Shown here piece by piece: positions 7,329 to 33,761 of a stretch of DNA of 64,000 nt. Each line of letters opens with the position of its first letter. Positions within the stretch are counted from its first letter, which is position 1. Position numbers and translations under genes: made by a program. The notes below the pieces were generated by a model, which did no database searches, was not told where the DNA came from, and was given only the letters and a program-made list of their open reading frames with translations. The stretch is from an uncultured Acidobacteriota bacterium (GTDB taxonomy: Bacteria; Acidobacteriota; Terriglobia; Acidiferrales; UBA7541), in the NCBI GenBank assembly GCA_963766985.1, contig CAVYCJ010000001.1, positions 45,634 through 109,633 on the forward strand, written 5' to 3'.

Positions 7329-7557
7329 GAAGGCGAATCACAATAATCCGAAAGCACTACCGGGCCAAGAACAACTCTTGGGAAAGCGGCGAAAATTCGC
7401 CTGCTAAATATTCCAACCACCCGCCGCGGGTCGGCATCCAAGCCGCATGTCCGTGATATTCTCAATGCCGTCGGAAGCGGTTGCGACTCTCGGGAGCGAA
7501 CCGAACTCGAGAGCCCAATCACTCCGGTCCGCGCATCGGGCTTCGGAAGCATCCCCC

Positions 7558-7857
7558 ATGATCGTCCGCACCGTCGAACAAGTCCGCCGAGCCTTCCGAA
7601 TTGTTGCTGGATTTACGTTGCTGCTCGTCGGCGTAGTCATGATTGTCACGCCCGGGCCGGGCTGGCTCGTGATCTTCCTCGGGTTAAGCCTTCTGGCCGC
7701 GGAGTTCATCTGGGCTCGGCGTCTGATGGATCGGATGAAGCGCGAAGGCGAGCGCGTTCGCGATGTCGTCTGGTCGATCGGCAAAGGCGTTCCCGGCGTT
7801 CCCTCGAGCAACGCTGCCGCCGAATCCTCTCAAGCTCAACCGCAAAAAACCGAGTAA
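7558..7857 (+). CDS. PGPGW-domain small membrane protein
   Basis: Literal motif MIVTPGPGWLVIFLGLSLLAAEFIWARR. I prefer the start at ATG 7558 (MIVRTVEQ) over the ORF-track start 7447. Confidence 0.6.
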   Translation: MIVRTVEQVRRAFRIVAGFTLLLVGVVMIVTPGPGWLVIFLGLSLLAAEFIWARRLMDRMKREGERVRDVVWSIGKGVPGVPSSNAAAESSQAQPQKTE

Positions 7858-7868
7858 ATTCGCGAGAT

Positions 7869-8771
7869 TTGGAGCGACGAATGGAAGTAGGTCTGATTGG
7901 TCTTGGAGGTATGGGCACCGGAATGGCGAAGAGCCTCCTGCGCGGTGGTCATCGTGTAACCGTTTTCAACCGCACGCGGGCCCGAGCGGAGGCCCTGCGC
8001 GCAGACGGCGCAATGGTCGCCGCCACGGCGGCCGAGGCGTGCCGGGCGGGAATTGTGATAACGATGCTTGCCGACGATGCGGCGCTCGAATCTCAGGTCT
8101 TCGGCGATGGCGGCATTCTCGCTTCGCTGCCGCCCGGCGGCGTGCATATTTCGTGCAGCACGATCAGCGTGGCCTTGAGCGACAGACTTACCGCTGCGCA
8201 TTCTGCTGCGGGACAGGAGTTTGTTTCTTGTCCGGTATTCGGCCGTCCCGACGCCGCCGAAGGTGGCCGACTTGCTGTTGTTGCCGCGGGGCCGTCTCAG
8301 GTCGTTGATCGCTGCAAGCCGTTGTTCGATTCGTTCGGGCCGAAATTGCTGGTCATAGGCGAAAAACCGTCGCTCGCGAATGTAGTCAAGCTCTCAGGGA
8401 ATTTTCTGATCGCCAGCGTGTTGGAGTCGCTTTCTGAAGCGATTGCGTTTGCACGGAAGTCCGGCGTCGATGCAGCGGTGCTCGTGGACTTTCTGACATC
8501 GACGCTTTTCAACGCGCCAGTTTACAAGGTGTACGGCGGCTTGATCGTGGCAGGGAACTACGACGATGTGGGCTTCGCTCTCCCGCTTGGGCTGAAGGAT
8601 ACGCGCCTCGTTCTCCAAGCGGCCGAGGCCCAGAGCGTCCCGATGCCGATCGCGAGCGTCGTACGCGATCGTTTCCTGACCGCTATGGCGCGCGGTAACG
8701 CAAATAAGGATTGGTCGGCACTCGGGCTCATCGCCGCGCAGGATGCTGGGCTTCCGCCGGCGAAGTCGTAA
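7869..8771 (+). CDS. NAD(P)-dependent oxidoreductase, 3-hydroxyisobutyrate/6-phosphogluconate dehydrogenase-like family
   Basis: N-terminal VGLIGLGGMGTGMAKSLLRGGHRVTVFNRT dinucleotide fold. About 290 aa with a C-terminal all-helical domain. Confidence 0.8.
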   Translation: MERRMEVGLIGLGGMGTGMAKSLLRGGHRVTVFNRTRARAEALRADGAMVAATAAEACRAGIVITMLADDAALESQVFGDGGILASLPPGGVHISCSTISVALSDRLTAAHSAAGQEFVSCPVFGRPDAAEGGRLAVVAAGPSQVVDRCKPLFDSFGPKLLVIGEKPSLANVVKLSGNFLIASVLESLSEAIAFARKSGVDAAVLVDFLTSTLFNAPVYKVYGGLIVAGNYDDVGFALPLGLKDTRLVLQAAEAQSVPMPIASVVRDRFLTAMARGNANKDWSALGLIAAQDAGLPPAKS

Positions 8772-8860
8772 CCCTCGTTTACCCCACTGGCACAAGCCGA
8801 CATCGTCGCAACTATTTCTCCGTGTTAGTCTGACCGTGCAGCGCACAGGAGATCGCGAAG

Positions 8861-9664
8861 ATGTATCCATGGACAGGGAAGTGGGCGCTCGTTACGGGAG
8901 CCAGCGCGGGAATCGGGGTTGCACTCGCGGCCGAGCTAGCCGGGTCTGGAACGAATCTCGTTCTCACAGCACGCCGCCAGGATCGCCTCACGGCGTTGGC
9001 GCACGATCTCGCCATCAAGCACAACATCCGCACCGAAATCTGTGTCGCGGACCTTGCCGATCCAACCGGTCCGGATTCGATCTTCGCTTTCGTCCGCGAA
9101 AAAAATCTCCACATCGATCTGCTCGTCAATAATGCGGGCTTCGGCGCTTACGGCGAGTTCGCCGCGTCCCAGCGCGCGAGGCAGGTCGAAATGGTGCAAG
9201 TCAATTGTTGCGCTGTCGTCAATCTGACGCATTTGTTTCTGCAACCGATGCTGCTGCGGAAATCTGGCGACATTCTGATCGTCGCGTCCACCGCGTCTTT
9301 TCAGGCTGTGCCGTACATCACGACCTACGCTGCAACCAAAGTCTTCGATTTGCACTTTGCGGAAGGGTTGGCCGAGGAGCTGAAGCCATTTGGCATTCGA
9401 GTTTGCGGCCTGTGTCCTGGCTCTACTGAATCTGAGTTTCACGTGGTGGCGAGCCACGATACTGCGCCGGCTGCGAAACGTCCGCGCGAAACCGCCGAAA
9501 AAGTGGCGCGCGTCGGCTTGCAGGCGCTCGCAGCAGGGAAGAGTTACGTCATCTCCGGTCGTCGCAACTACCTCGGCGCGCACCTTCAACGCCTGATCCC
9601 GCGTCATTTAGTCACATCCATCGCAGGCAAGCTGTTTCGTCCGCCAGCGAAAACCCAAGCTTGA
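8861..9664 (+). CDS. SDR family oxidoreductase
   Basis: Motifs ALVTGASAGIG, NNAG and Y-x-x-x-K (YAATK). Confidence 0.85.
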   Translation: MYPWTGKWALVTGASAGIGVALAAELAGSGTNLVLTARRQDRLTALAHDLAIKHNIRTEICVADLADPTGPDSIFAFVREKNLHIDLLVNNAGFGAYGEFAASQRARQVEMVQVNCCAVVNLTHLFLQPMLLRKSGDILIVASTASFQAVPYITTYAATKVFDLHFAEGLAEELKPFGIRVCGLCPGSTESEFHVVASHDTAPAAKRPRETAEKVARVGLQALAAGKSYVISGRRNYLGAHLQRLIPRHLVTSIAGKLFRPPAKTQA

Positions 9665-11065: not shown

Positions 11066-13687
11066 TCACTCGTAACGCAACGCCACCATTGCATCGACTC
11101 GCGTCGCCCGGCGCGCCGGCAAATAACAAGCCAGCAGCGCTGCCACCATCAGCACCAGCGCGACTCCACCCACCGCCAACGGATCGATCGCGCTAACCTC
11201 AAACAATACGGACTTCATCGTCTGCCCGATGAAATACGTCCCGCTCAGTCCGATCACCAGACCGAAGCCCGCGAGCATCATTCCTTCGCGCAACACCATT
11301 CCAAGCACATCTCTCGCGTTCGCCCCCAGCGCCATCCGCACCCCAATTTCTTGCGTTCGCTGCGCAACCGCGAACGACATCACGCCGTAAATCCCGATGG
11401 CAGCCAGCACCAGCGCCACACCCGCGAATCCCGCAAACAGAGAGGTGATGAATCGATCGCTTGCAAGCGATTCGTCGACCACTTGATCCATCGTTCGAAC
11501 CTGATCCATCGCCATGTCGGGATCCATCGACCGCAGCACCGTCGCGATGCTATTGGTCATCGCGGAAGGATCGCTGTTCGTTCGCACGCTGACTTTCATG
11601 AAAATCAGAGGATCCTGCCAGAAAGGGACGTCGATTTCTGGCCTGATCTCTTCGCGGACACCACGGTTTATGACGTCGCGATACACGCCGACGATCTGCC
11701 ACTCCACAGGCGGTCCCATCAATGCTTGCTCGGGCCGCCGCACAATAACGCGCTGTTGCAGCGGGTCCGTTCCGGCCAGAAACATCTTCACAAACGTCTC
11801 GTTCACCATCGCAACGGGTAGAGTGCCCGCGGCGTCCTGCTCGGTGAAGCCGCGCCCCCGCGTAATCTGCATTCCGAACGTCCGAAAATAATCCGGTGTG
11901 ACGAGATTAAATCCCGATCCGGGCTGTGCCGAGGGATCGACGGGAGGTTGTCCCGCGATGCTGAACGCCATGCCCATCCCCGTCCATGTAATTGGCGTAC
12001 TGCTGGAAGCGGCCGCAGACGTTATTCCTGGCAGCGCGGAAATTTTCTCGAGTAAGGGCCGGTAAAACGCGGTGATCTGCTGCTCGCTCTTGAAGCGATC
12101 GAAGCTCACCGGCAACGTGAACGTCAAAATGTGATCCCGACGAAATCCCAAATCAACGCGCGTCAACTTCCAGAAACTGTGAATCACGAGGCCCGCGCCC
12201 GCGAGCAACGCCAGCGCCAGCGCAAACTCTGCGACCACCAGCACTCGTCGCAGTCCGTTGCGCCCGCCGCCGGAGCCCGATCGTCCACCCTCTTTCAGCG
12301 TTTCGCTGAGGCTCCAGCGCGAAACTTGCAACGCCGGCGCGCATCCGCATAGGACGCCGGCCAATATCGTGGCCGTAATGCTGAAGAGCAGCACGGGAAG
12401 GTTCAGCGAGATATCGCTCTCGGTCGGCACCGAGAATTGCGGCAGGAGAACGACAACCAGCTTCAGCAACATTCCCGCCAGCGCGATCCCGAGCGCGCCA
12501 CCGATCGCCGCGAGCACAAGGCCCTCCGATAGAAATTGCGAAAATAATTGACCTCGCGTCGCGCCAAGCGAAGCCCGCAGCGCAGCCTCCTTCCTCCGCA
12601 CCGTTCCGCGAGCCAGCAGCAAATTCGCCACGTTCACGCAAGCGATCAGCAGCACAAATGCCACTGCCGCCATCAGCAGCCACAAACTCTTGATCGTGTC
12701 GCGACTCGTGAAGTCATTCTTCAACGGTTCGATGATTACGCCCCAACCCTTGTTCGACTTCGGATATGCCTCCGCGATATTTCGCGCGACGCGATCCATG
12801 TCGGCACTCGCCTGCGCGATCGTGACGTCCGGCTTCAGCCGCCCCATCACGAACATCCAGTGCCGTTCGTGCGTGATCTGGTCGGGCCGCAGCGCCATCG
12901 GTACGAACACATGTGCCTCATATCGATCCGGCATTCCCGCGGCGAGCACGCCCACCACGGTGTATGGCGTTCCATCCATGCGCACTTGTCGTCCCAGAAT
13001 GTTTGGATCGCTGCCGAACCGTTCGCGCCACAAACGATTCGTCATGACTAAGACGTGCTCCTTGCCTTGTTCTCCTTCCTCCGACAAGAAATCGCGCCCA
13101 AGTGAAAAGGGAATCCCTTGCATCGCAAAAAATCCCGGGATCATGACGCGCGCCTGCTCCGCTTGCGGACGCCCATCGACCGACAAATTGAATGTCCACT
13201 CATCCCACGCGACTAAATTCTGAAAGACCGTGTTCTGCTGCTTCCAGTCCAGAAAATCCCCAGGCGATACGACATTTCTCCCGTCGTCGTCCGACCACAC
13301 CATCACCAATTGCTCCGGGTGCGGCATCGGCAATGGCGCAAGCAGGGCACCATAAACGACGCTGAAAATCGCGGTGTTCGCGCCGATTCCGAGCGCCAGC
13401 GTCAGAATCGCAACCGCCGCGAATCCAGGATTCTTCCGCAAGATGCGAAACCCAAACTTCACGTCGGTCCAAACCCGCTCGACCGAACTCCATCTCCAAA
13501 CATCTCGTCCGTCGCGCTCGGTCAACGAAAAATTTCCAAACTCCCGCCGCGCCTGATGCTCAGCTTCCCTCCGCTCCATCCCCCGGCCCACCAATTCCGC
13601 GACGCGCTCTTCCAAATGCCCGCGCATCTCTTCCGATAACTCCGCAAACTCACGCTTCCGCCGAAACATCCGCAGCCAAAATCCCAT
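11066..13687 (-). CDS. ADOP-family MacB-like ABC permease (duplicated FtsX domains, no ATPase)
   Basis: The start at ATG 13687 gives the typical permease prefix MGFWLRMFRRKREFAELSEEMRGHLEERVAELVGRGMERREAEHQARREFGN. Two 4-TM FtsX halves follow, each with a large periplasmic loop. The upstream part of the 945-aa ORF is not protein-like. Confidence 0.85.
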   Translation of the reverse strand: MGFWLRMFRRKREFAELSEEMRGHLEERVAELVGRGMERREAEHQARREFGNFSLTERDGRDVWRWSSVERVWTDVKFGFRILRKNPGFAAVAILTLALGIGANTAIFSVVYGALLAPLPMPHPEQLVMVWSDDDGRNVVSPGDFLDWKQQNTVFQNLVAWDEWTFNLSVDGRPQAEQARVMIPGFFAMQGIPFSLGRDFLSEEGEQGKEHVLVMTNRLWRERFGSDPNILGRQVRMDGTPYTVVGVLAAGMPDRYEAHVFVPMALRPDQITHERHWMFVMGRLKPDVTIAQASADMDRVARNIAEAYPKSNKGWGVIIEPLKNDFTSRDTIKSLWLLMAAVAFVLLIACVNVANLLLARGTVRRKEAALRASLGATRGQLFSQFLSEGLVLAAIGGALGIALAGMLLKLVVVLLPQFSVPTESDISLNLPVLLFSITATILAGVLCGCAPALQVSRWSLSETLKEGGRSGSGGGRNGLRRVLVVAEFALALALLAGAGLVIHSFWKLTRVDLGFRRDHILTFTLPVSFDRFKSEQQITAFYRPLLEKISALPGITSAAASSSTPITWTGMGMAFSIAGQPPVDPSAQPGSGFNLVTPDYFRTFGMQITRGRGFTEQDAAGTLPVAMVNETFVKMFLAGTDPLQQRVIVRRPEQALMGPPVEWQIVGVYRDVINRGVREEIRPEIDVPFWQDPLIFMKVSVRTNSDPSAMTNSIATVLRSMDPDMAMDQVRTMDQVVDESLASDRFITSLFAGFAGVALVLAAIGIYGVMSFAVAQRTQEIGVRMALGANARDVLGMVLREGMMLAGFGLVIGLSGTYFIGQTMKSVLFEVSAIDPLAVGGVALVLMVAALLACYLPARRATRVDAMVALRYE

Positions 13688-13746
13688 GCCGATCACTCCA
13701 GATAACGCGGCCTTCGCTTTCAAACTGTCGACTGTGAACTCTCTTC

Positions 13747-16443
13747 TCACTCGTACCGCAGCGCCACCATGGGATCGACCTGCGTCGCCCGCCGCGCCGG
13801 AATCCAGCACGCGACTAGCGCCACCGCAAACAACAGCAGCGCAACCAACGCGAACGTCAACGGATCGTGCGCGCTCACGCCAAACAGTAAGCTGCTCATC
13901 CACCGCGTCAGCCCGAGCGCGATGAACAGCCCAATTGCCACCCCGATCAGCGCCATCCGTGCCCCGGACCTTAGCACCATCCCCAGCACATTCTCCCGCT
14001 GCGCCCCCAGCGCCAGCCGGATTCCAATCTCGCGTTTTCGCTGTGACACGGTGTAAGACAGCACGCCATAAATTCCAATCACTCCCAACGCGATCGACAT
14101 CGCTCCCGCAATCCCCAACATCACCAGTGTGAACGATGTCCTCGCAACCGACTTGTCATATACGTCCTGCATCGTCTGCACCGACGCCACCGGCAAATTC
14201 GCATTCACCGACCACACCGCTTGCCGAATTTCATCGACAAATCCCTGGCTGCCCGCCCGCTCACTCCGCACGACAAACGTCGCGTTCCGCATCACCTGCA
14301 CTTCTTTACTCCCATAAAGCCCGACTCCCATCGTCGGCCAGTAAACCGTCTCCGGCGGCGCCGCTTGCACTCCGTTTTCCCGAACATCTTCCACCACGCC
14401 AATCACTTCGCTCCACGGCGCGGACCCAAATTCATGCACGCGTTTACCGACTGCTGCTTGCGCCGATCCCCAATATTCACGAGCCAACCCATCCGAAACC
14501 ATCACCACCGGTCGCGATCCGTACAGTTCAGCCCAGCTGTAATCTCGCCCCGCCATCAATCGCGTGCCCGCTGTCGCAAAAAATCCCGGAGCTACAAACT
14601 TATACAGCCGCATCGGCGGAATCTCATCCTCCGGGTAATTTTTCCCCTCCGCCATCAGCTCGTCCCACCCTGCTTCGTATCCTTCCAGCGGCATGTCGCT
14701 TCCATACGCCGCCGACTTCACTCCCTGAATCGTCGCCAGCTTGTCTTGGATCGCTTGCTGCAACCGCGTCACCTGTTCCGGCGTCGCAACCAGCGAATCG
14801 GGAATCGCGATCCGCATCAACTGCAGCGTCTTCGCATCCGTGAATCCCGGCTGCACATGTCGCATCGCATCAAACGTTCGAATCATCAACCCCGCGCAAA
14901 CCAGCAGCACCAGTGCCATAGCCACTTGCCCAACAACGAGAAAATTCCGTGCGCGATGTCGTTCCCGGCTCGCGCTCGTCGTTCTCCCCGCCACTGCGCG
15001 AGACAACGCTGGCCCGCGTGACGTTCCGTATTTCAGCGCTGGGACCAGTCCAAACAAAAGCCCTGCCACCACCGACAAAAATAGCCCGAACACCAGCGTT
15101 CGCCAGTCCACCGCAATCTCTTGCAGCCGCGGCAGATTCGCTGGCCCAATCGCCATCAAAAATTTCACGCCAGCATAGGCAATCCCCATCCCCACCAGGC
15201 CGCCCATGAGCCCTAGCATTACGCTCTCAACCAGCAGCGCCCGCACAATCCGCACCGAGCCTGCACCCAGCGCCGCACGCACAGCCATTTCTTGCTGCCG
15301 CGATTCACCTCGCACCAAAAACAAATTCGTCACGTTCGCGCACGCAATCAGCATTACTAGCGCAATCGTCCCCATCACCACCCAAAGCGTGTCGCTCACA
15401 TTTCCGATCACTTCGTCCTTCAACGGCCGAAGCGCCGGCGTGATCTTCCACGACTCATAGATGTGCGGATTCGTGCCCGGCCCGTTCGTGAACGTATCCA
15501 TCCAGATCGGTAGCATTCGCGTCAGGTCCGCGTTCGCCTGCGCGATCGTCACCCCCGGCTTAAGCCGCGCAATCCCGTTGTATCCAAATCCGGCCAGAAT
15601 GGCCTTCCCGCGATCCTCTGAAACGGGTACCAGAACATCGAAATCCTTATCCACGACTCGAAATCCCCGCGGCATCACTCCCACGATTTCCTTTGGCCGC
15701 GAATCCAACGAAAGATTTCTTCCCACCACCGTGGGGTCGCCGCCGAACTTCCGCTGCCAATAGCCGTAGTTCAACATCACGCGCTCCGGCCCATTCGGTA
15801 CTTGGTCCTCATGTGAAAGCCATCGACCTACCTCCGGCGCCACATTCAACGCCTCCAACACACCATCTGAGACGCCAATCGTCTTCACCTGCTCGGGCTC
15901 GCCCACACCCGTGACATTCGCGCTACCCGGCGACCACACTCCCATCGCCTGAAACGATCGATTCTGTTCTGAATAGATGAAATACATCGACGCCGACAGC
16001 CGCAGTCCATCGACAAACGTCGTTAGCCCGCCGGCACCCGGTGCGTTCTGTCGCAACGCCACCAACTCCTGCGAATTCGGATACCGGAGCGGCCGCAACA
16101 TCACCGCATCCACCACGCTGAACACCGCCGCGTTCGCGCCAATCCCAATCGCGATCGTCAGCAGCGCCACCACCGTAAATCCCAGATTCTTCCGCAGGCC
16201 GCGCAGCCCATACCGCACATCCGCCAATAAGTCCTCGAACAATTCCCACCTCCACGCTGCCCGCCCGTCTTCCTCGATCAATCCCAAATTCCCAAACTCG
16301 CGCCGCGCCGCCTGCTCTGCCTCCTTGCGCGACATCCCCTCTGCCACCAACTCTTCGACCTTTTCATCGAGATGTGCCCGCATGTCTTCCGACAACTCCG
16401 AATAAATCTCCCGCCGCCCAAAGACCCTCTGCCAAATTCCCAT
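13747..16443 (-). CDS. ADOP-family MacB-like ABC permease (paralogue)
   Basis: The start at ATG 16443 gives MGIWQRVFGRREIYSELSEDMRAHLDEKVEELVAEGMSRKEAEQAARREFGN. Architecture matches the neighbouring gene. Confidence 0.85.
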   Translation of the reverse strand: MGIWQRVFGRREIYSELSEDMRAHLDEKVEELVAEGMSRKEAEQAARREFGNLGLIEEDGRAAWRWELFEDLLADVRYGLRGLRKNLGFTVVALLTIAIGIGANAAVFSVVDAVMLRPLRYPNSQELVALRQNAPGAGGLTTFVDGLRLSASMYFIYSEQNRSFQAMGVWSPGSANVTGVGEPEQVKTIGVSDGVLEALNVAPEVGRWLSHEDQVPNGPERVMLNYGYWQRKFGGDPTVVGRNLSLDSRPKEIVGVMPRGFRVVDKDFDVLVPVSEDRGKAILAGFGYNGIARLKPGVTIAQANADLTRMLPIWMDTFTNGPGTNPHIYESWKITPALRPLKDEVIGNVSDTLWVVMGTIALVMLIACANVTNLFLVRGESRQQEMAVRAALGAGSVRIVRALLVESVMLGLMGGLVGMGIAYAGVKFLMAIGPANLPRLQEIAVDWRTLVFGLFLSVVAGLLFGLVPALKYGTSRGPALSRAVAGRTTSASRERHRARNFLVVGQVAMALVLLVCAGLMIRTFDAMRHVQPGFTDAKTLQLMRIAIPDSLVATPEQVTRLQQAIQDKLATIQGVKSAAYGSDMPLEGYEAGWDELMAEGKNYPEDEIPPMRLYKFVAPGFFATAGTRLMAGRDYSWAELYGSRPVVMVSDGLAREYWGSAQAAVGKRVHEFGSAPWSEVIGVVEDVRENGVQAAPPETVYWPTMGVGLYGSKEVQVMRNATFVVRSERAGSQGFVDEIRQAVWSVNANLPVASVQTMQDVYDKSVARTSFTLVMLGIAGAMSIALGVIGIYGVLSYTVSQRKREIGIRLALGAQRENVLGMVLRSGARMALIGVAIGLFIALGLTRWMSSLLFGVSAHDPLTFALVALLLFAVALVACWIPARRATQVDPMVALRYE

Positions 16444-16494
16444 TTGCGTCCTCACGTCATCCGAACGTTCTACTGCCATCCCAGCCCTTGCGGT

Positions 16495-28319: not shown

Positions 28320-28889
28320 ATGAAGCAGAAAATGACGGGAGCAGCGGGATTGGCCGGCGCGTTTGTTGCCGGCATGGTGGTGGCTACGATGTTGGGCTGG
28401 GGGCTGACCACGGCGAGGGCGAAGACGCCAGGCGCGGCGCAAACTCAGGACATTACCGTGAAGGAGGTCATCAACCCAACGGTGACGGACGCGGACATCG
28501 CCTTGCTCCGAAAAGATCTACGCGCCATGAAAATGCAAGTGGTTGGGCAGAATATGTCGCTGTCGGATGCGGAAGGCGAGAAGTTCTGGCCGATTTACAA
28601 CCATTACGTAAAGGACTTGCAGGAAGTGAACAATCAGAAATACGCCCTCCTCAAGCAGTACGCCGAGATGTGGGAGACGATGAGCGACCAGGATGCGATG
28701 ATTTACGTGCGCCACTGGCTCGAGGCCGATGGCGAGGCCCAGGCGCTCCGCTTGAAGTATGTGCCCGTGGTGAACCAGGTGTTGCCAGGACGAAAGGCCG
28801 CGACGTTTTTCCAGTTGGACCGCCGGCTAAACATGATCATCGATCTGCAATTGTTTTCGCAGATTCCGTTGGCGCACGTGAAGGAGTAG
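28320..28889 (+). CDS. Hypothetical exported or membrane-anchored protein
   Basis: 189-aa ORF with N-terminal hydrophobic span AAGLAGAFVAGMVVATMLGW. The rest is helical and charged. No family recognised. Confidence 0.4.
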   Translation: MKQKMTGAAGLAGAFVAGMVVATMLGWGLTTARAKTPGAAQTQDITVKEVINPTVTDADIALLRKDLRAMKMQVVGQNMSLSDAEGEKFWPIYNHYVKDLQEVNNQKYALLKQYAEMWETMSDQDAMIYVRHWLEADGEAQALRLKYVPVVNQVLPGRKAATFFQLDRRLNMIIDLQLFSQIPLAHVKE

Positions 28890-28991
28890 CCGCGTAGAGA
28901 TCGTGCGCGTCAGGCTCGCTGTGTTGACGCTACCCCTGAAACTTGGTAGAACGGAAGCCACTGAATACCCGCGCGTTCGTGGAGGTCAATC

Positions 28992-29168
28992 ATGGATAGC
29001 CAAAACCCAGGCGAAGCAAATCCCCTAAAAGAAGAGTCGGTGATCGCCAACGCAGAAGCCGCTCCGAAGGAACTCCCCGACGACGACCTGAAATCGGTGA
29101 CCGGCGGCCTCGGTTCGAAGCCCAGCGAAGCGCTGGGATCCGCCGCGGTTTGCATCAGTCAGCTGTAA
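28992..29168 (+). CDS. Small peptide A (58 aa) with double-glycine-type leader; candidate precursor or pheromone peptide
   Basis: Absent from the ORF track because it is under 60 aa. GGAGG (28981..28985) lies 6 nt before ATG 28992. My translation: MDSQNPGEANPLKEESVIANAEAAPKELPDDDLKSVTGG|LGSKPSEALGSAAVCISQL, stop TAA 29166..29168. Confidence 0.55.
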   Translation: MDSQNPGEANPLKEESVIANAEAAPKELPDDDLKSVTGGLGSKPSEALGSAAVCISQL

Positions 29169-29235
29169 ATTCGCTTCCGCCGTCAAAACGTATCTCTCGA
29201 CCGCTTGGCCCCGGCGGCCTCAGCGTATTGCTTAA

Positions 29236-31326
29236 GTGTCCGACAACTCCCGACATGAGTGGGTCGTAGGTCCGTTTCATCCGGACAACGAACTCCCCTC
29301 GCGCACCCCGCCCGCCGAACACCTCGAAATCAACGCGCATCGCAACCTGCGCGGCCCCTACACTTCGGCAATCGGAATCGTTCTTCGGCTTCTGGAACAT
29401 CCATCGATCGCCAAAATCGAAGATCTCTTCCGCCGGCGGCAACGGACGCTTCTACTCGTCTGTCCGGAATTAGCGAATTCCCATCCGGTCTCGCCCGAAG
29501 TTCGCAAATGGCTCACCTTATCTGGGGAAGGGAATCCGTCCTCACGTACGCTTAAGCTGGCTCACGGCCTGACCGACTTCATCCTCGACTGCGCTGCGCA
29601 TCTGAACTCTCAAGCGCCTCTCGTTCTATCGATCGATAATGTAGACTTCGCCGATCCTCTGGATCAGGAATTCTTGGCCGTTCTGCTTCGCCGCGCTCAT
29701 CCCGATCAACTCAGGATAAGAATTCGAACGTCATCGGACCGCCTCAGCGACGACCAACTTCGTTCGGCCGTACAGAAATTTGCATCCATAAGACATCTGC
29801 AATCGTCCCAGCAGGATTCCCTCTCTTCCAAGCAATATTCGCCCCCACCGAACATCTCCGCCTCGCGAAGAAATACGTCTGGTCGGACTGCACATCCAAC
29901 GACCCATCCCTCACGTCTTCCTACGCCGCCATAAACGCTGACGACCGCCGACTGCTGCATCAAGAACGACTCGCCGAACTTCAGTCACTCGGCCAAACGT
30001 CTTCTTCGCTAGGGGCTATCCCTTTTCACTGTGAACAGGCTGGCGACGATCCGTTCCCACTTCTCGCCGCCTCGGTGCATTGCATGCACGTCGCATTCTA
30101 CGAGGCAGCTCTGGACTGGGCAGTCCGCGGCCGCCGGATGCTCGCTTCCTCGGACCAAAGCAAACTGAGCAACGACCTCAGCCGCAACATTCTCTTCTCG
30201 TTGCTGTTACTGGAGCGTCTCGACGAGTTAGAGACGGTTTGCGCGCGGAATCTTGAGCGGAGCAACGATCCCGCCCTGCTCGCCCACACTACCTACGCCA
30301 AAGCGATCCTCGCGGCCCGCCTCTACGAACCATCAAGGCGCGACTATGCCGCCGCTCGAACCTGGATCGAGAAGTCCTTGGCCTTCACCGAAATGCTCCC
30401 AACGTCCGAGACTCGTGCGGTAAACATCGCGTTCTTGCGCAATACGATGGCTTTGGTGGAAATGCGCACGCGGCAACCTGGACACCGCCCTCCAACTTCT
30501 GTCCGATTCTCTTCAGTTCATGGCCACCGAAGCTCCGGCCAAATTCGAATCGGAATGCGCGATCCTTCTTCACAATCGTGCGCGGCTTCACACCAAACGC
30601 AACGAGCTGCCGAAAGCCATTGACGACCTCACGACTCTCCTCCGCCACCAGCCAGGCAACTACGAAAGCTATTTCGACCGCGGCGTTCTGCGGCAGCGAT
30701 TGGGCCATACGGAGGAAGCAATCCGGGACTTCGACGCCGCCATCGAATGGAGTCCACCCGATTCCGACGCCCACTTCAATCGCGCCCAGGCCTTGCTTTC
30801 ACTCGGCCGGGACGACCAAGCGCTGGCAGATTACACGCGAGTGCTCGAACTCCACCCGGCTCACATCGAAGCCCTGACCGATCGCGCTCGCCTCCTTTAC
30901 GCGCAAGGGAAACTAAACGCCGCTCGCTCCGACGTAAACGCCGCGCTTCTTCTATCGCCGTCGAGCGCGAGACTCTTGTGCATCTCCGGATTGCTGGATC
31001 TGAAAAGTCAGAATCTTGAACAAGCTTTCGAGCTCTTCACCAAGGCGATGGAAGCCGACTCTTCGCTCCCCGATGCTTGGGCCAACCGGGCAACCGTCCT
31101 TTTCAAGCAGGGAAAGTTCGAACAGGCGGGTCTCGACCTCAGTCGGGCACTTTCGCTCCGCGAGGATTCCGAGACCTTCTACAACCGCGGTCGATGTTTC
31201 GAGATGCAGAAGAAATGGTCCCAGGCGGCCGCCGACTATTCGCGCGCTCTCCAGTTAGTCAGGGGCGATGACAGTCATATCCGACGCCATTTGGCTGTGT
31301 GCCGGCAAGCGGAGATAGTTCGCTAA
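29236..31326 (+). pseudogene. Large (~696 aa) protein: P-loop-less STAND/AAA_16-like N-terminal region plus TPR array; two frame breaks
   Basis: Three ORFs (29236..29934, 30075..30623, 30520..31326) join. The first join, ..SSKQYSPP|TEHLRLAKKYVWSDC.., needs one C added to the C5 run at 29842..29846. The second, ..ALVEMRT|GNLDTALQLLSDSLQFMATEAP.., needs 1 nt skipped at about 30468..30471. The C-terminal half carries at least 6 TPR units (e.g. YFDRGVLRQRLGHTEEAIRDFDAAIEWSP). LVLSIDNVDFADPLDQEFLAVLLRR resembles a Walker-B/AAA_16 segment, but there is no GxxxxGK[ST]. Confidence 0.65.
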
Positions 31327-31368
31327 ACAATCAAAATACGCCGCTCGGCACCCGGTCGCGGTGCTGAC

Positions 31369-32511
31369 TCACGCATTGACGATCGGAAGGAGATCATTTT
31401 CGTTCGAACATCCCTGCAAGATTCCAAAATCGACCATCTTGCGCACTAGGTTCATATCCAGCCGGGTGTTCTCTTTCGTAAGAATCGCTTCGAGCGCTTC
31501 TTCCGTGGGCCTGCCATCGAAATACCGGAGAGCTCGCGCAAGCTTGTCTGGCATTTGCAACGGGTCATATCCACTGTAACCGACAATTCGGAAGCCGCCG
31601 TCCCCAACGCCCGTGAAATGGATTCGGCCCAGACGCAGTCTCTCGGGGAGGGCTGTCGATTCCAGGTTTTTGTACGCATCCGACAGCATTTGCGCGAGAA
31701 TTCGCACTCGCGGGCCTGATACCTGTTCGACCTGTTCCCATGTCAACGGGTCCACAAGCCGCGCACACGCACGATAGAATTCCGCTTCGCGCCCGACCCA
31801 ATCGCCCCAAAGCTTGCGGTACAAACCCCAGTTCATCTCCCCGCCTAGCTCCGAGACGTCGGGCGATGACCGTGCCGACATGGCAAAGACTTCCGCCGAA
31901 CCTGCCTTCAGTTCCTCCATGCACCACAAGCCGAGCTCACATTCGACAATCTGGAGAAGTTTGTCGGCCACCTTCCAGAAGTTGTGCCCTGTACCGCCAC
32001 GAACATGTTTGCAGAACCAGGTAGAACATACCGCTGGCCGGTGTTTCCAGATGCCACAGCCACCATTGGAGTCGAGAAATTGGCAGCGCAGTTCCGGAGC
32101 GCGCCCGAACACGTTCGGGGTGCTGTGGTACAACAAGTCGAAGACGGATCCAGGCCCAGCCCAACGCGGAGAAATCGCTACTCTTCGCGCGATACGTCGC
32201 TCAAGCTCTTCCCGCCCCGCTTGAATCGAGGGGTCCTCTTCCATCAGGATGCGCCCAGCCAGAAAGTTTGGAATGTGTGGTTGGAACGCACAACATTTCG
32301 TCGCGGGATGAAAAAATACGCCTTCCGCAGGCCCGTCGGGAGACGGGAGCATCGCGCAATTTTGGCAGGTAGCTCGAGTTTCGGCGGGAATAGGGCCGCC
32401 AGTCACGGTGCGGAGCCAGGGCGCGTAAAGAGGGGGGAGGGCAGCTTCGAGCATCATATTCGGTTCATATTTGCGGGAGAGATGATTCCACCGCTGGCGA
32501 AGCGAATACAA
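31369..32511 (-). CDS. YkgJ/FliB-type (CxxC...CC) cysteine-cluster protein with C-terminal PqqD-like (RRE-like) domain
   Basis: 380 aa. Cysteines C49-x2-C52, C73-C74 and C143-x8-C152-x9-C162-x4-C167 (CQFLDSNGGCGIWKHRPAVCSTWFC) match the Zn/Fe-chelating CxxCxxCC family pattern. Residues ~291-366 (RLRLGRIHFT..GFRIVGY..DPLQMPDKLARALRYFDGRPTEEALEAILTKENTRLDMNLVRKMVDFGILQ) have the 3-strand plus 3-helix pattern of PqqD. Confidence 0.55.
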   Translation of the reverse strand: MYSLRQRWNHLSRKYEPNMMLEAALPPLYAPWLRTVTGGPIPAETRATCQNCAMLPSPDGPAEGVFFHPATKCCAFQPHIPNFLAGRILMEEDPSIQAGREELERRIARRVAISPRWAGPGSVFDLLYHSTPNVFGRAPELRCQFLDSNGGCGIWKHRPAVCSTWFCKHVRGGTGHNFWKVADKLLQIVECELGLWCMEELKAGSAEVFAMSARSSPDVSELGGEMNWGLYRKLWGDWVGREAEFYRACARLVDPLTWEQVEQVSGPRVRILAQMLSDAYKNLESTALPERLRLGRIHFTGVGDGGFRIVGYSGYDPLQMPDKLARALRYFDGRPTEEALEAILTKENTRLDMNLVRKMVDFGILQGCSNENDLLPIVNA

Positions 32512-32577
32512 ATCACCGGGCGGGCCGCTGTTGACTGCGGCCCGCCCAGGTGTTGATATCCGGTATTTTCGGCTGTC

Positions 32578-32793
32578 TTAGGAAGGCAGTCCGTCTTCGA
32601 GCAACGAGCCGTCGAGGGTGTCGCCTTGAGCGATCGACCCGCCAGTCGTTGTTTTTGGAACTGAGGTGAGCGCCTTTTGTTTCACGACTACGGAGATGCC
32701 TTGCCCGCCCTGAACTCCACTGAGCTGATCTTCGTTCAACTCGGTGACTTCACCTGCGTGTTCCGAACCGGGCTTGATGGTTTCGTCAGACAT
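32578..32793 (-). CDS. Small peptide B (71 aa) with double-glycine-type leader; candidate precursor peptide
   Basis: MSDETIKPGSEHAGEVTELNEDQLSGVQGG|QGISVVVKQKALTSVPKTTTGGSIAQGDTLDGSLLEDGLPS. It lies 66 nt upstream of the Cys-cluster gene on the same strand. A purine-rich GAGAAAGAGAG precedes the ATG. Confidence 0.6.
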   Translation of the reverse strand: MSDETIKPGSEHAGEVTELNEDQLSGVQGGQGISVVVKQKALTSVPKTTTGGSIAQGDTLDGSLLEDGLPS

Positions 32794-32908
32794 ATTTTTC
32801 TCTCTTTCTCACACCGCCTCCGTCGAGACGGCGATCGTTACCGCTAAGTCCGAATTTTCCGGCATCGTGGGGACGCCCGACCGCGGGCACATTCCGGAAT
32901 CGGCCCGG

Positions 32909-32937
32909 AATATAGTCAATTGCCCTGTTTATGTAAA
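32909..32937 (-). promoter_or_regulatory. Sigma-70-like promoter for the peptide B / Cys-cluster operon
   Basis: On the minus strand: TTTACA (32937..32932), a 17-nt spacer, then TATATT (32914..32909). This is about 115 nt upstream of ATG 32793. Confidence 0.45.
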
Positions 32938-33098
32938 GACGTGTTTCTTAATAGCCGTCTCGGCGAAGCCCTCCGGCCGAACCTTGCCCGCGCATACACT
33001 GCCGTAAGGTTTCCCCCGTACTCGACCGATTGAGCCTCCGGCCTACGGCTTCCGCGACCACCAAAATAGACCTATCCGGTCAAATCGTCTGTCGGAAC

Positions 33099-33761
33099 TC
33101 AACTCGTCGGCGGAGGAGGTTGGAAAATAAACGCTACGACGATCTTTGACGTGACCGGCCTTCCGCGCACGGTGGCTGCTTGGAAGCGCCAGTTTTTCAA
33201 AGCTTCCTGCGCAAAGTGATTGAAGCCGGCCATTTCGTGCAGCACGTTGACATTCTTGACGTTTCCCGCGCTGTCCACCGTTGCTTGGAGTAACACCGAT
33301 CCCGAAGCAACGCTATTGATCGGATAGTCTGCATAAGCGAACGACAAGATGCCCACCGGAGAACCGTCCTCACCGCTGTCATCTGACGGAGCAGACGGAA
33401 TCACGGGCGTGAAATCTTTGACCGGCGCCGCTCCGAAACCCAGGTAATTCGTTGGCCGGTATACGAATGCGACGGTCATGCGAGAAGCTCTGGCCTTGCG
33501 GCCCTCAAGGGCTGGCCGGAATTTCCAATTCTGAACGGCAGATTTTACGTCCCCAAGCATCGCTCCTGGATTTCTGAGAGCTTCGATTCCCTGGATGCTC
33601 CCGTCGTCGCCAACACTGACGTCCACGACAAATAATCCATCGAGGATGACGTTATATGGCGCATACGCGTCGCCAGCCGAAATCACTTCGGGAGGGCTGT
33701 AGGCTTGCTGAGCCGAGACACAAGGCCACAAGAAAAGCCCCAGCAAAAGAAGTCTTCTCAT
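33099..33761 (-). CDS. Secreted protein with two TonB-C-like domains
   Basis: Signal peptide MRRLLLLGLFLWPCVSAQ. Two repeats of the TonB C-terminal pattern (..VDVSVGDDGSIQGIEALR...AVQNWKFRPA and ..LQATVDSAGNVKNVNVLH...EALKNWRFQAAT). Confidence 0.6.
   Translation of the reverse strand: MRRLLLLGLFLWPCVSAQQAYSPPEVISAGDAYAPYNVILDGLFVVDVSVGDDGSIQGIEALRNPGAMLGDVKSAVQNWKFRPALEGRKARASRMTVAFVYRPTNYLGFGAAPVKDFTPVIPSAPSDDSGEDGSPVGILSFAYADYPINSVASGSVLLQATVDSAGNVKNVNVLHEMAGFNHFAQEALKNWRFQAATVRGRPVTSKIVVAFIFQPPPPTS

Follow-up and report, generated by a model that had tools for sequence, protein, structure and literature searches.

A Cys-cluster protein with a predicted RRE-like domain beside double-glycine-leader peptides in a rearranged acidobacterial peptide-secretion locus

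Here, we describe a 4-kb island (28911..32946) within a 64-kb stretch of acidobacterial DNA (the window) that joins two conserved two-gene modules, as delimited by nucleotide homology to related loci: a double-glycine-leader peptide (peptide A) with a TPR gene, and a second such peptide (peptide B) with a gene for a Cys-cluster protein. We consider it probable, though far from certain, that these are two modules of a peptide production and export cluster representing an undescribed RiPP-like system that is RRE-guided and PCAT-exported. Its sole candidate for a tailoring enzyme is a member of a large, unnamed Cys-cluster family with a hidden, predicted RRE, which makes the system a good candidate for a new RiPP class. 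The literature searched contained no RiPP class described as centred on such an enzyme, in agreement with the initial annotation, which knew of none based on a YkgJ-type enzyme.

Both peptide genes carry the motifs originally assigned to them (coordinates in Table 1). ELPDDDLKSVTGG (residues 27-39) ends the leader of peptide A and ELNEDQLSGVQGG (residues 18-30) that of peptide B; the two share 7 of 13 residues, with L, L and V at -12, -7 and -4. The distances to the next gene (67 nt for A, 66 nt for B) and the cores, LGSKPSEALGSAAVCISQL in peptide A and the 41-residue QGISVVVKQKALTSVPKTTTGGSIAQGDTLDGSLLEDGLPS in peptide B, were also as first quoted. Conserved orthologues of both peptides, and a dN/dS of 0.14 for peptide B, suggest that neither is a chance reading frame. 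The peptide A/TPR block is 84-86% identical at the nucleotide level to related loci L088 (7675..10111) and L089 (7674..10068), and nucleotide comparison revealed no further sequence common to these loci to the left of 28911. Positions 31375..32946 are 85% identical to locus L008 (7511..9083) of a related MAG, with no nucleotide homology to L008 in the flanks; L088 and L089 also match the 3' part of the Cys-cluster gene. Only 16 nt separate the two homology blocks, which lie tail to tail, and the remainder of the window consists mostly of long uninterrupted ORFs.

Table 1 Features of the island (positions in the window)
Feature	Coordinates	Strand	Basis or remark
Homology block 1, peptide A + TPR module	28911..31352	+	includes 81 nt 5' of peptide A
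Peptide A precursor, 58 aa	28992..29168	+	ORF; orthologues in L088, L089
AAA_16-like/TPR gene, frame-broken	29236..31326	+	pieces 29236..29934, about 29840..30623, 30520..31326
Homology block 2, peptide B + Cys-cluster module with promoter region	31369..32946	-	
Cys-cluster/RRE protein, 362 aa	31369..32457	-	ATG 32457; alignment, AF2 model
C-terminal RRE-like winged-helix domain (predicted), residues about 262-350	31408..31674	-	Foldseek of model
N-terminal catalytic or metal-binding domain (predicted), residues 1 to about 260	31678..32457	-	remotely PF03692-like
13-bp GC-rich hairpin + T-rich tail	32516..32549	-	between peptide B and Cys-cluster gene
Peptide B precursor, 71 aa	32578..32793	-	ORF; orthologues in relatives
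Promoter + 5' leader region of peptide B operon	32794..32946	-	conserved vs L008

The two units had been read as sharing one layout. Instead, they are unrelated conserved modules that in close relatives flank an NHLP-type exporter operon, in the order peptide B, Cys-cluster gene / cNMP-binding protein, ABC2, ABC1(C39), HlyD / peptide A, TPR. The exporter operon is present in L008, L088, L089, and L001, and the L088 genes score above the NCBIfam cutoffs (in brackets) with 1076 bits for TIGR03796 (853), 942 for TIGR03797 (709), and 303 for TIGR03794 (156). In the window, this operon of roughly 7 kb is missing and the peptide A module is inverted relative to the peptide B module. The reported absence of a C39 protease/exporter holds across the whole 64 kb, in which tblastn found no C39/ABC gene. 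By comparison with these loci, the window is a rearranged, exporter-less copy of a conserved acidobacterial peptide-secretion cluster. Loss of the operon, the inversion, and three frameshifts in the TPR gene suggest that this copy is either served by an exporter from another part of the genome or in decay; without an adjacent exporter and with a broken TPR gene, it may not be functional.

The peptide B module is conserved and, judged by its substitution pattern, under selection, as it retains 85% nucleotide identity to L008, a dN/dS of 0.11 (Cys-cluster gene versus L008) and 0.14 (peptide B), and its promoter and hairpin. Peptide B orthologues at L008, L001, L021, L092, and L100 have the invariant C-terminal GGSIAQGDTLDxxLxEDGLPS in common. 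The aligned region 5' of peptide B is 92% identical to L008 overall, compared with 85% for the whole module, and is almost invariant from the promoter, a predicted sigma-70-like site (TTTACA-17-TATATT, 32937..32909, minus strand), to the start codon. The hairpin is kept in L008 despite several stem substitutions and is a candidate attenuating terminator. The Cys-cluster gene was initially annotated as 380 codons from a TTG (31369..32511, minus strand). This ORF exists, but its TTG sits inside the T-rich tail of the hairpin, and the most likely start is the downstream ATG, which yields a protein matching the length of its homologues.

The 709 homologues of the Cys-cluster protein are mostly about 361 aa long, and none has a precomputed Pfam domain. 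The family is large, with 1,972 clusters/representatives at 50% identity from many phyla, and neither Pfam nor NCBIfam has a model for it. Nine Cys residues (C31, C34, C55, C56, C125, C134, C144, C149, and C179) are invariant or nearly so in the family alignment. The proposed YkgJ/PF03692 membership stands only as a remote, sub-threshold relationship, with an N-terminal CxxC...CC rather than CxxCxxCC motif: PF03692 scored 20.6-20.7 bits (gathering threshold 23) over profile positions 41-68 only, 14 of 27 family members gave a sub-threshold match, and hhalign against E. coli YkgJ covered only 24 columns (E 0.027). Foldseek returned no PDB fold match for the N-terminal domain. The C-terminal ~90 residues, by contrast with their lack of a sequence-level match to the PqqD HMM (PF05402), are predicted to fold as an RRE, and the suspected RRE-like tail is thus borne out by Foldseek of the predicted structure. 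The best PDB matches of the domain model were all RiPP leader-binding domains, namely McbB (6gos; E 0.02, prob 0.97), TigE (8vpo), LynD (4v1v), TruD (4bs9), TbiB1 (5v1v), the PbtF RRE (8t19), MccB, SuiB, and PqqD, with probabilities up to 0.98, query TM-scores of 0.45-0.58, and E values of 0.02-0.1. The full-length AF2 model (pLDDT 83) had the lasso-peptide RRE TbiB1 as its top match; pLDDT of the RRE region was about 78-96 in this model and 71 in that of the isolated domain.

Small GG-leader ORFs also co-occur with Cys-cluster homologues in other genomes, the synteny proposed as a check at the outset. A strict leader motif on the sense strand within 500 nt upstream was observed 31 times versus 8.1 expected (P 7e-10), at 26 of 79 family loci. 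Small ORFs with acidic leaders lie near only about a third of the loci (29 of 83); their density is 0.112 per kb within 2.5 kb of family genes versus 0.013 per kb farther off, an 8.7-fold enrichment. Other loci have other kinds of upstream ORF. The loci come from Acidobacteriota, Myxococcota, Gemmatimonadota, and Chloroflexota, among other phyla. C39-peptidase ABC exporters likewise accompany the family elsewhere, closest relatives included: related exporter genes occur within about 8 kb at 25 of 83 loci, three of these clusters have TolC-like proteins, and many loci have no adjacent exporter. Cores beside the Cys-cluster gene contain 9.4% Lys and 3.1% Arg, versus 2.4% and 10.2% in a small background set of neighbouring proteins, with Lys present in 32 of 33 cores. 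A raised Lys content is a common trait of secreted cationic peptides as well.

Peptide A is preceded at 7 nt by a GGAGG Shine-Dalgarno sequence. Its 58-aa orthologues in L088 and L089 precede TPR orthologues, and a GG-leader ORF lies upstream at 36 of 76 TPR-homologue loci, with most cores ending in V-C-[IV]-S-[QK]-L. Against TIGR01847, peptide A scores 14.0 bits, below the cutoff of 15.7. The TPR gene encodes a degenerate AAA_16-like (STAND-type, without Walker A) N-terminal domain with a weak AAA_16 match and C-terminal TPR repeats with Pfam matches down to E 1e-38. It is not the single ORF of ~696 aa first described; frame 1 stops at 29934, the homologous reading occupies frame 3 between about 29840 and about 30470, and frame 1 resumes thereafter. 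Alignment with two intact orthologous genes reveals three 1-nt insertions specific to the window (at about 29833, 29841, and 30471) and an additional in-frame 3-nt insertion at about 29745. Intact orthologues have 694-699 aa and 81-85% identity. The frame-corrected gene has a dN/dS of 0.19-0.22, similar to that of the intact orthologue pair (0.24), so that the insertions would be very recent or assembly errors. Peptide A, with its short core ending in V-C-I-S-Q-L, and the TPR protein are a separate, co-clustered peptide-protein pair, perhaps with a sensing or regulatory role; the TPR protein may be a scaffold or receptor, as initially proposed. They are found together at loci without the Cys-cluster gene, and nothing points to the once-suggested action of its product on peptide A.

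The analysis showed the ORFs, their conservation and synteny, the predicted RRE-like fold, the TPR frameshifts, and which exporter the relatives carry; leader binding, catalysis, the substrate residue, and export are inferred. Briefly, the RRE of the Cys-cluster protein would bind peptide B at its acidic double-glycine leader, and the metal or Fe-S Cys-cluster domain would then modify the Lys-rich core. Lys alkylation is one speculative option, by analogy with FliB, which uses a [4Fe-4S] cluster and SAM to methylate Lys in a protein substrate and is the only characterised relative in the motif family (PMC8598068). An NHLP-type C39-peptidase ABC exporter (PCAT) would remove the leader after GG during export. 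Rather unlikely, in our assessment, is a protein that binds the leader without tailoring the peptide, as a PCAT escort or chaperone, an immunity factor, or a redox/metal-sensing export regulator; the peptides would then be secreted unmodified. An RRE fold implies peptide binding only, profile and fold searches of the protein found neither a recognisable catalytic fold nor a cofactor-binding motif, the very diverse cores across loci would fit a leader-only interaction, and the clusters have regulatory parts (cNMP-binding protein, sigma-54 activators, kinases). Yet about 260 residues with nine (near-)invariant Cys and many other invariant residues exceed the needs of a scaffold, FliB is an enzyme, RRE fusions among the PDB matches lie almost all within modifying enzymes, and some loci (e.g., L063) have tandem paralogues of the gene, as is common for tailoring enzymes.

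We regard as least probable, and by a clear measure improbable, that both peptides are unmodified class-II-bacteriocin-like or signalling peptides next to a protein with another substrate through co-regulation or hitch-hiking. None of the canonical RiPP enzymes is encoded in the window, Cys, Ser, or Thr patterns typical of known RiPP classes are missing from the cores, and the leaders resemble generic GG bacteriocin leaders, with weak matches to TIGR01847 and Bacteriocin_IIc; however, the adjacency of GG leader and Cys-cluster gene is maintained across phyla despite very different cores, the protein has a predicted RRE-like domain, and the two genes of the peptide B module move as a unit. A somewhat more credible, if still doubtful, proposal is that the locus in the window is a non-functional remnant with a lost exporter, rearranged DNA, and a decaying TPR gene, whose peptides are no longer matured or exported. 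The missing operon, the tail-to-tail fusion, and three frameshifting insertions inside 640 nt of TPR-gene sequence, in a window otherwise largely of long uninterrupted ORFs, agree with decay, but both peptide genes and the Cys-cluster gene are intact, promoter and hairpin are conserved, and the dN/dS of the frame-corrected TPR gene is in line with that between the intact orthologues. An exporter encoded elsewhere is plausible because so many family loci have none adjacent.

The RRE-guided, PCAT-exported system that we favour resembles NHLP/Nif11 RiPP clusters with PCAT (TIGR03794 HlyD, TIGR03796 ABC1-C39, TIGR03797 ABC2, TIGR03896 cNMP-binding) in its precursors with double-glycine leaders, in the L088 and L089 exporters that exceed the cutoffs, and in the NHLP-like leader at one related locus, L009 (38 bits against TIGR03793). 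Known clusters, however, rely on a cyclodehydratase, LanM, or a radical SAM enzyme, where here the Cys-cluster/RRE protein is the only candidate; the leaders of peptides A and B are short and are not NHLP or Nif11 domains, and the window has no exporter. With PF03692/COG0727 proteins, the Cys-cluster protein shares its Cys-richness and a C-terminal C-x8-C-x-I-W-x-x-R-P-x-x-C motif, but its N-terminal motif is C-x2-C-x20-CC instead of CxxCxxCC or the CX4CX3CC of FliB (PMC8598068), its family (about 360 aa) has an added helical region and the RRE, and its PF03692 and YkgJ matches are as limited as given above. PqqD-like RREs (TbiB1, McbB, LynD/TruD, TigE, SuiB, PbtF) are its best structural matches, with predicted beta-strands followed by three helices, and likewise a precursor gene adjoins the gene; in contrast to them, the domain has no sequence-level match to PF05402, and an RRE fused to the C-terminus of a Cys-cluster protein was not found in the literature searched. 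Like the STAND/AAA_16-TPR proteins of peptide clusters (TOMM kinase/cyclase TIGR03903, mod_pep_cyc TIGR04510) and the TPR peptide receptors (RRNPP), the TPR protein joins TPR repeats to a weakly AAA_16-like core and is paired with a small secreted-type peptide. In contrast, the TPR family lacks the Walker A lysine (consensus AHRNLRGPYT at the expected P-loop place), and the TPR protein carries neither a kinase nor a cyclase nor an HTH domain, scores far under the family cutoffs (18.9 versus 705 bits), and is frameshifted in the window. Class II bacteriocins and GG signalling peptides have the same GG leader end with hydrophobic -4, -7, and -12 positions, and PCAT-type export occurs in relatives of the window locus; the cores, however, are unrelated to known bacteriocin families in profile searches, and a protein predicted to bear an RRE is conserved beside the precursor.

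Peptide B is probably a RiPP-type precursor. Its leader would be bound by the C-terminal RRE-like domain of the adjacent Cys-cluster protein, its core would be modified by the metal- or Fe-S-binding Cys-cluster domain of the same protein, and an NHLP-type C39-peptidase ABC exporter (PCAT) would cut the peptide after GG during export. The initial annotation, which had read the region as a RiPP-like or peptide-signalling locus with a YkgJ/FliB-type enzyme and a TPR protein, is partly supported and considerably sharpened by the present analysis.

Both small ORFs are exactly as first described: the 58-aa peptide A and the 71-aa peptide B carry GG-ending 13-mers (residues 27-39 and 18-30, respectively) that are identical at 7 of 13 positions, with L/L/V at -12/-7/-4. 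Taking a GG (or GA/GS) end preceded by hydrophobic residues at -4, -7, and -12 as the double-glycine leader pattern, L28, L33, and V36 precede G38-G39 in peptide A, L19, L24, and V27 precede G29-G30 in peptide B, and orthologues of both peptides show the same arrangement. Peptide A scored 14.0 bits with TIGR01847 (bacteriocin_sig, cutoff 15.7) and peptide B 16.7 bits with Pfam Bacteriocin_IIc (PF10439, cutoff 27.1), each below the cutoff, while two related peptides narrowly passed TIGR01847 (15.9 and 16.3 bits). The leader consensus across the family loci is (V/T)ELSxE(D/E)LExV(S/A)GG and the cores are hypervariable; the C-terminus within the peptide B family is invariant (GGSIAQGDTLDxxLxEDGLPS). 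A second PCAT cleavage of peptide B at an internal TTTGG/S (slash, putative cleavage position) was rejected, as -4/-7/-12 are T/P/L, a non-hydrophobic pattern. For peptide A, CaaX-type prenylation was likewise discarded: its Cys mostly stands five positions before the terminus rather than four, with variable spacing.

The 380-aa ORF initially assigned to the Cys-cluster protein (31369..32511, minus strand) exists, but its real start is most likely ATG 32457, which yields 362 aa, in line with homologues of about 361 aa; the TTG start chosen before sits within the tail of a strong hairpin. A word-indexed search returned 709 homologues, none of which has a precomputed Pfam domain, and an exhaustive profile search detected 1,972 cluster representatives (50% identity), with E at most 1e-30 for 1,089. 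Relatives are encoded on 173 stretches of one-genome-per-species contigs. The best 80 of these 173 all derive from metagenome-derived assemblies whose labels name Acidobacteriota, Gemmatimonadota, Myxococcota, Chloroflexota, Methylomirabilota, Planctomycetota, Bacteroidota, and other phyla. Two of the related loci, L063 and L059, hold tandem paralogues of the gene.

To our knowledge, FliB is the sole biochemically characterised relative of PF03692/COG0727-like Cys-cluster proteins. This Lys methyltransferase depends on a [4Fe-4S] cluster and SAM, acts on flagellin, and has the N-terminal motif CX4CX3CC (PMC8598068). The CxxCxxCC motif implied by the earlier assignment to this group is absent from the family studied here, which has C31-x2-C34 and, 20 residues on, C55-C56; with C125, C134, C144, C149, and C179 these make up nine invariant or near-invariant Cys in the family protein alignment. 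Nor did the proposed search with PF03692 reach the gathering threshold (20.6-20.7 bits vs 23): the sub-threshold match spans only profile positions 41-68, the C-terminal half, and such matches occur in 14 of 27 family members, every one with E >= 6.7e-4. The C-terminal Cys motif C..C.IY..RP..C is present, RCQFLDSNGGCGIWKHRPAVCSTWFC aligning in hhalign with YkgJ RCIAL..NACCTIYKNRSSTC, and is invariant in the family alignment. Full YkgJ-family membership was rejected, as the hhalign alignment with E. coli YkgJ is confined to these 24 columns (C..C.I[YW]..RP..C). The sub-threshold PF03692 score and the motif-only YkgJ alignment together suggest that the N-terminal domain is, at most, distantly related to the YkgJ/FliB group. 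The protein matched no NCBIfam model. The AF2 model of the full-length protein is confident (pLDDT 83), and a PDB fold search found no solved structural relative of the N-terminal domain.

In the same search, the RRE of the lasso-peptide protein TbiB1 was the only meaningful PDB match to the full-length model. When residues 262-362 were modelled separately, the best PDB matches were all RiPP leader-binding domains, namely McbB, TigE, LynD, TruD, TbiB1, the PbtF RRE, MccB, SuiB, ThcOx, and PqqD, with probabilities up to 0.98, query TM-scores of 0.45-0.58, and modest E values of 0.02-0.1. The predicted domain has the winged-helix arrangement of a three-stranded sheet and then three helices by which we define the RRE fold, with known RREs as its closest structures (strands 12-15, 19-24, 27-31, and 38-42; helices 43-51, 57-68, and 74-82). 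By sequence, none of 26 family C-terminal domains matched PF05402 (PqqD) in Pfam at E up to 1, and a profile of the domain had no relevant match among PDB sequences. The RRE-like tail named in the initial annotation is thus backed by fold but not by sequence, and the predicted fold supports an RRE-like, putatively leader-binding domain.

Association of the Cys-cluster gene with leader peptides extends across the family. Among 79-83 dereplicated loci, a strict GG-leader motif was found 31 times on the sense strand in the 500 nt upstream of family genes, against 8.1 expected (P 7e-10), which bears out the anticipated co-occurrence; the density of small ORFs with acidic leaders is 8.7-fold higher within 2.5 kb than beyond, and 29 of 83 loci have one. 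At 25 of 83 loci, genes for ABC exporters related to the C39-peptidase type are found no more than about 8 kb away, in many cases together with HlyD; at three loci TolC-like proteins accompany the exporter. Set beside these counts, the alternative that the peptides stay unmodified and the neighbouring Cys-cluster gene is unrelated to them seems very unlikely to us. That the Cys-cluster/RRE protein is a non-catalytic partner that only binds leaders we consider improbable. Under the favoured reading of a leader-guided modifying enzyme, Lys as the modified residue is suggested by circumstantial grounds, namely the analogy to FliB and the composition of the enzyme-adjacent cores (Lys 9.4% and Arg 3.1%, vs Lys 2.4% and Arg 10.2% in neighbouring proteins; Lys in 32 of 33 cores), and we would give this target a rather low probability.

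A further alternative, independent of the others, concerns only the copy in the window, which might be a decaying remnant. As stated in the initial annotation, there is no C39 exporter: no ABC or C39 gene occurs anywhere in the 64 kb, nor any gene matching TIGR03796, TIGR03797, or TIGR03794, and the ~7-kb exporter operon of the relatives is missing. The orthologous clusters L001, L008, L088, and L089 encode a C39-peptidase ABC exporter with the precursor, and the exporter genes of L088 exceed the curated cutoffs of the same three NHLP bacteriocin export models. The order in L088 and L089 is enzyme (+), then a cNMP-binding protein, ABC2 (971 aa), ABC1 with C39 (734-757 aa), and HlyD (all -), then the peptide A orthologue (58 aa) and TPR gene (both +); the TPR orthologues show 83-85% identity and the enzymes, over the part present, 85-92%. 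In the window, two homology blocks, nearly coextensive with the initially delimited region (28924..32937), instead stand tail to tail, 16 nt apart, in a relative orientation opposite to that in L088. The reported ~696-aa TPR ORF is also broken, so that the observation of two intact two-gene units is confirmed in part only: frame 1 from 29236 ends at a stop at 29934, and the homologous reading proceeds in frame 3 before switching back to frame 1 near 30470. DNA alignment with two intact orthologues (694-699 aa, 81-85% identity) places 1-nt insertions, present in the window only, at ~29833, ~29841, and ~30471. After frame correction the TPR gene has a dN/dS of 0.19-0.22, on a par with the 0.24 between the two intact orthologues, so that the breaks either arose very recently or are errors of the assembly. 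Long ORFs without interruption make up most of the remaining window, which speaks against an assembly prone to errors in general. We consider decay of the window copy less likely than not.

The peptide B module has its own conservation boundaries. The closest MAG locus, L008 (87% amino acid identity), has exactly 31375..32946 in common with the window at 85% nucleotide identity, i.e., peptide B, the enzyme gene, and about 150 nt upstream, with no homology outside. Against L008, dN/dS is 0.14 for peptide B and 0.11 for the enzyme. These ~150 nt are 92% identical, exceeding the conservation of the coding part, are nearly invariant from the promoter onward, and contain a TTTACA-17-TATATT site. 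Between peptide B and the enzyme gene lies a 13-bp hairpin that is kept in L008 despite several stem substitutions; hairpins between precursor and enzyme genes are typical of operons that need the precursor in excess. An Rfam scan of 28700..33100 yielded no family, and folding of the conserved peptide B 5' leader showed no exceptional stability (z = -0.83), so that a structured RNA there is unsupported. GC and skew profiles of the island and its flanks show no anomaly and hence no compositional sign of recent transfer. Elsewhere in the window, two long minus-strand ORFs (945 and 910 aa) have 157 nt in common.

Peptide A and the TPR gene are a module apart from peptide B and the enzyme. An upstream GG-leader ORF is present at 36 of 76 loci with TPR homologues, and at nearly all of those with at least ~37% identity in the N-terminal domain; its core is 15-24 aa long and usually ends in V-C-[IV]-S-[QK]-L. 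This pair also occurs in contexts without enzyme and without exporter; as to the initial suggestion that the enzyme might act on peptide A as well, no link between the two emerged. At L092, peptide A and the TPR gene are immediately preceded by peptide B. The L001 exporter is 94-97% identical to exporters adjoining peptide A/TPR modules at three further loci (L096, L097, and L099), which indicates that the eight-gene cluster is conserved over deeper divergence. The C-terminal TPR repeats are evident (TPR_1 and TPR_2, E ~1e-38); a PPTA Pfam match on this part was dismissed as a weak, generic TPR cross-match. The N-terminal domain scored 19.7 bits with AAA_16 (threshold 32.6), with weak matches, covering the Walker-B end, in 6 of 12 members. 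GK[ST] of the Walker A motif GxxxxGK[ST] was not found, the family consensus at that place being AHRNLRGPYT with no P-loop lysine, and profile searches against PDB sequences and Pfam gave nothing beyond the weak AAA_16 match. We read the protein as a putative pseudo-STAND/TPR protein, with receptor, scaffold, or enzyme as candidate roles.

Related loci show further features (see table). The cores of several GG-leader peptides encoded upstream of enzyme homologues mimic the N-terminal strand of Hcp, the tube protein of type VI secretion (DYLLQLDGIKGES...); with Pfam T6SS_HCP, the L087 peptide scores above the gathering threshold (27.1 vs 23.5 bits, profile positions 2-30). Distant homologues are preceded by another class of ORF with a hydrophobic N-terminus, a conserved AIVQPNGG-type motif, and a Lys-rich tail, which has no NCBIfam match and may represent a second leader type. 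At L004, and equally at L005 and L006, the short precursor is replaced by a gene for a 287-aa LysM protein with two internal leader-like repeats, DLGQLSGG/ASAGK and TLGQMSGG/ASAGK (slash after GG). At L013, the enzyme homologue is followed downstream by a run of three more GG-leader precursor genes, which have near-identical leaders and different cores and resemble a hypervariable precursor cassette. In Gemmatimonadota, Methylomirabilota, and others, a second cluster type (L077; also L066, L064, L036, L028, L069, and L063) combines the enzyme with a 1,040-1,200-aa C39-ABC protein, HlyD, a sigma-54-type AAA+ activator, and a ~351-aa protein whose family, found at 11 loci, has no Pfam or NCBIfam match. 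Upstream of the peptide B orthologue, L001 encodes a Ser/Thr kinase-TPR protein of 1,677 aa as well as an FHA-GAF-guanylate cyclase; considered along with the cNMP-binding proteins of the exporter operon, these raise the possibility that cyclic nucleotides control export.

Coordinates of features in the window and at related loci
Locus	Position	Strand	Feature
Window	11066..13903	-	long ORF
Window	13747..16479	-	long ORF
Window	28911..31352		homology block 1, peptide A and TPR
Window	28992..29168	+	peptide A
Window	30520..31326		TPR_1 and TPR_2 matches
Window	31369..32946		homology block 2, enzyme and peptide B
Window	32578..32793	-	peptide B
Window	32794..32946	-	region upstream of peptide B
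L001	1..5405		kinase-TPR protein and guanylate cyclase
L004	5059..5922		LysM protein gene
L007	5825..5977		Hcp-like GG-leader peptide
L013	9819..10618		three GG-leader precursor genes
L014	1285..1488		Hcp-like GG-leader peptide
L018	1241..1444		Hcp-like GG-leader peptide
L027	7665..7952		AIVQPNGG-type ORF
L030	7618..7953		AIVQPNGG-type ORF
L033	7590..7943		AIVQPNGG-type ORF
L035	7569..7835		AIVQPNGG-type ORF
L037	49..357		AIVQPNGG-type ORF
L039	7618..7944		AIVQPNGG-type ORF
L044	7605..7961		AIVQPNGG-type ORF
L059	7311..7790; 8001..9107		tandem paralogues
L063	5144..6262; 6887..8005		tandem paralogues
L077	14501..15556		second cluster type
L086	72..302		Hcp-like GG-leader peptide
L087	7717..7974		Hcp-like GG-leader peptide

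We tentatively propose, with somewhat less than even confidence, that the ~360-aa Cys-cluster/RRE proteins, which occur in at least eight phyla and to date only in uncultured bacteria, define a new RiPP class, in which a FliB/YkgJ-like Fe-S enzyme with a sequence-cryptic RRE would modify hypervariable cores, including mimics of the Hcp N-terminus, possibly on Lys, for export by NHLP-type PCATs. In Acidobacteriota, a second GG-leader peptide, with a Cys motif at its C-terminus, would be coupled to this system together with a pseudo-STAND/TPR partner for sensing or processing of this second peptide. In agreement with the initial annotation, full-text searches for YkgJ, CxxCxxCC, PF03692, COG0727, or FliB together with RiPP found no described RiPP class built on a YkgJ-type enzyme, and neither a search of a 2025 survey of RREs by structure, supplement included, nor literature searches for Hcp-like GG peptides turned up a description of a Cys-cluster/RRE system. 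Should the Cys-cluster protein be a leader-guided tailoring enzyme, RiPP biosynthesis would gain a new enzyme superfamily, about 2,000 sequence clusters without a Pfam or NCBIfam name would obtain a functional context, and genome mining a handle on peptides of soil Acidobacteriota, Gemmatimonadota, Myxococcota, and other poorly cultured phyla. An RRE seen by fold alone and hidden from sequence HMMs exemplifies what current RRE-based mining misses, and the Cys-tailed GG-leader peptide with its pseudo-STAND/TPR protein is a second unstudied conserved peptide-protein pair.

By these searches, the candidate tailoring enzyme falls outside both PF03692 and PF05402 and fits no named family. The GG leader, the RRE-like domain, and, in the relatives, PCAT export follow the same logic as known RiPP systems, and the exporter found in the relatives genuinely belongs to the NHLP export family.
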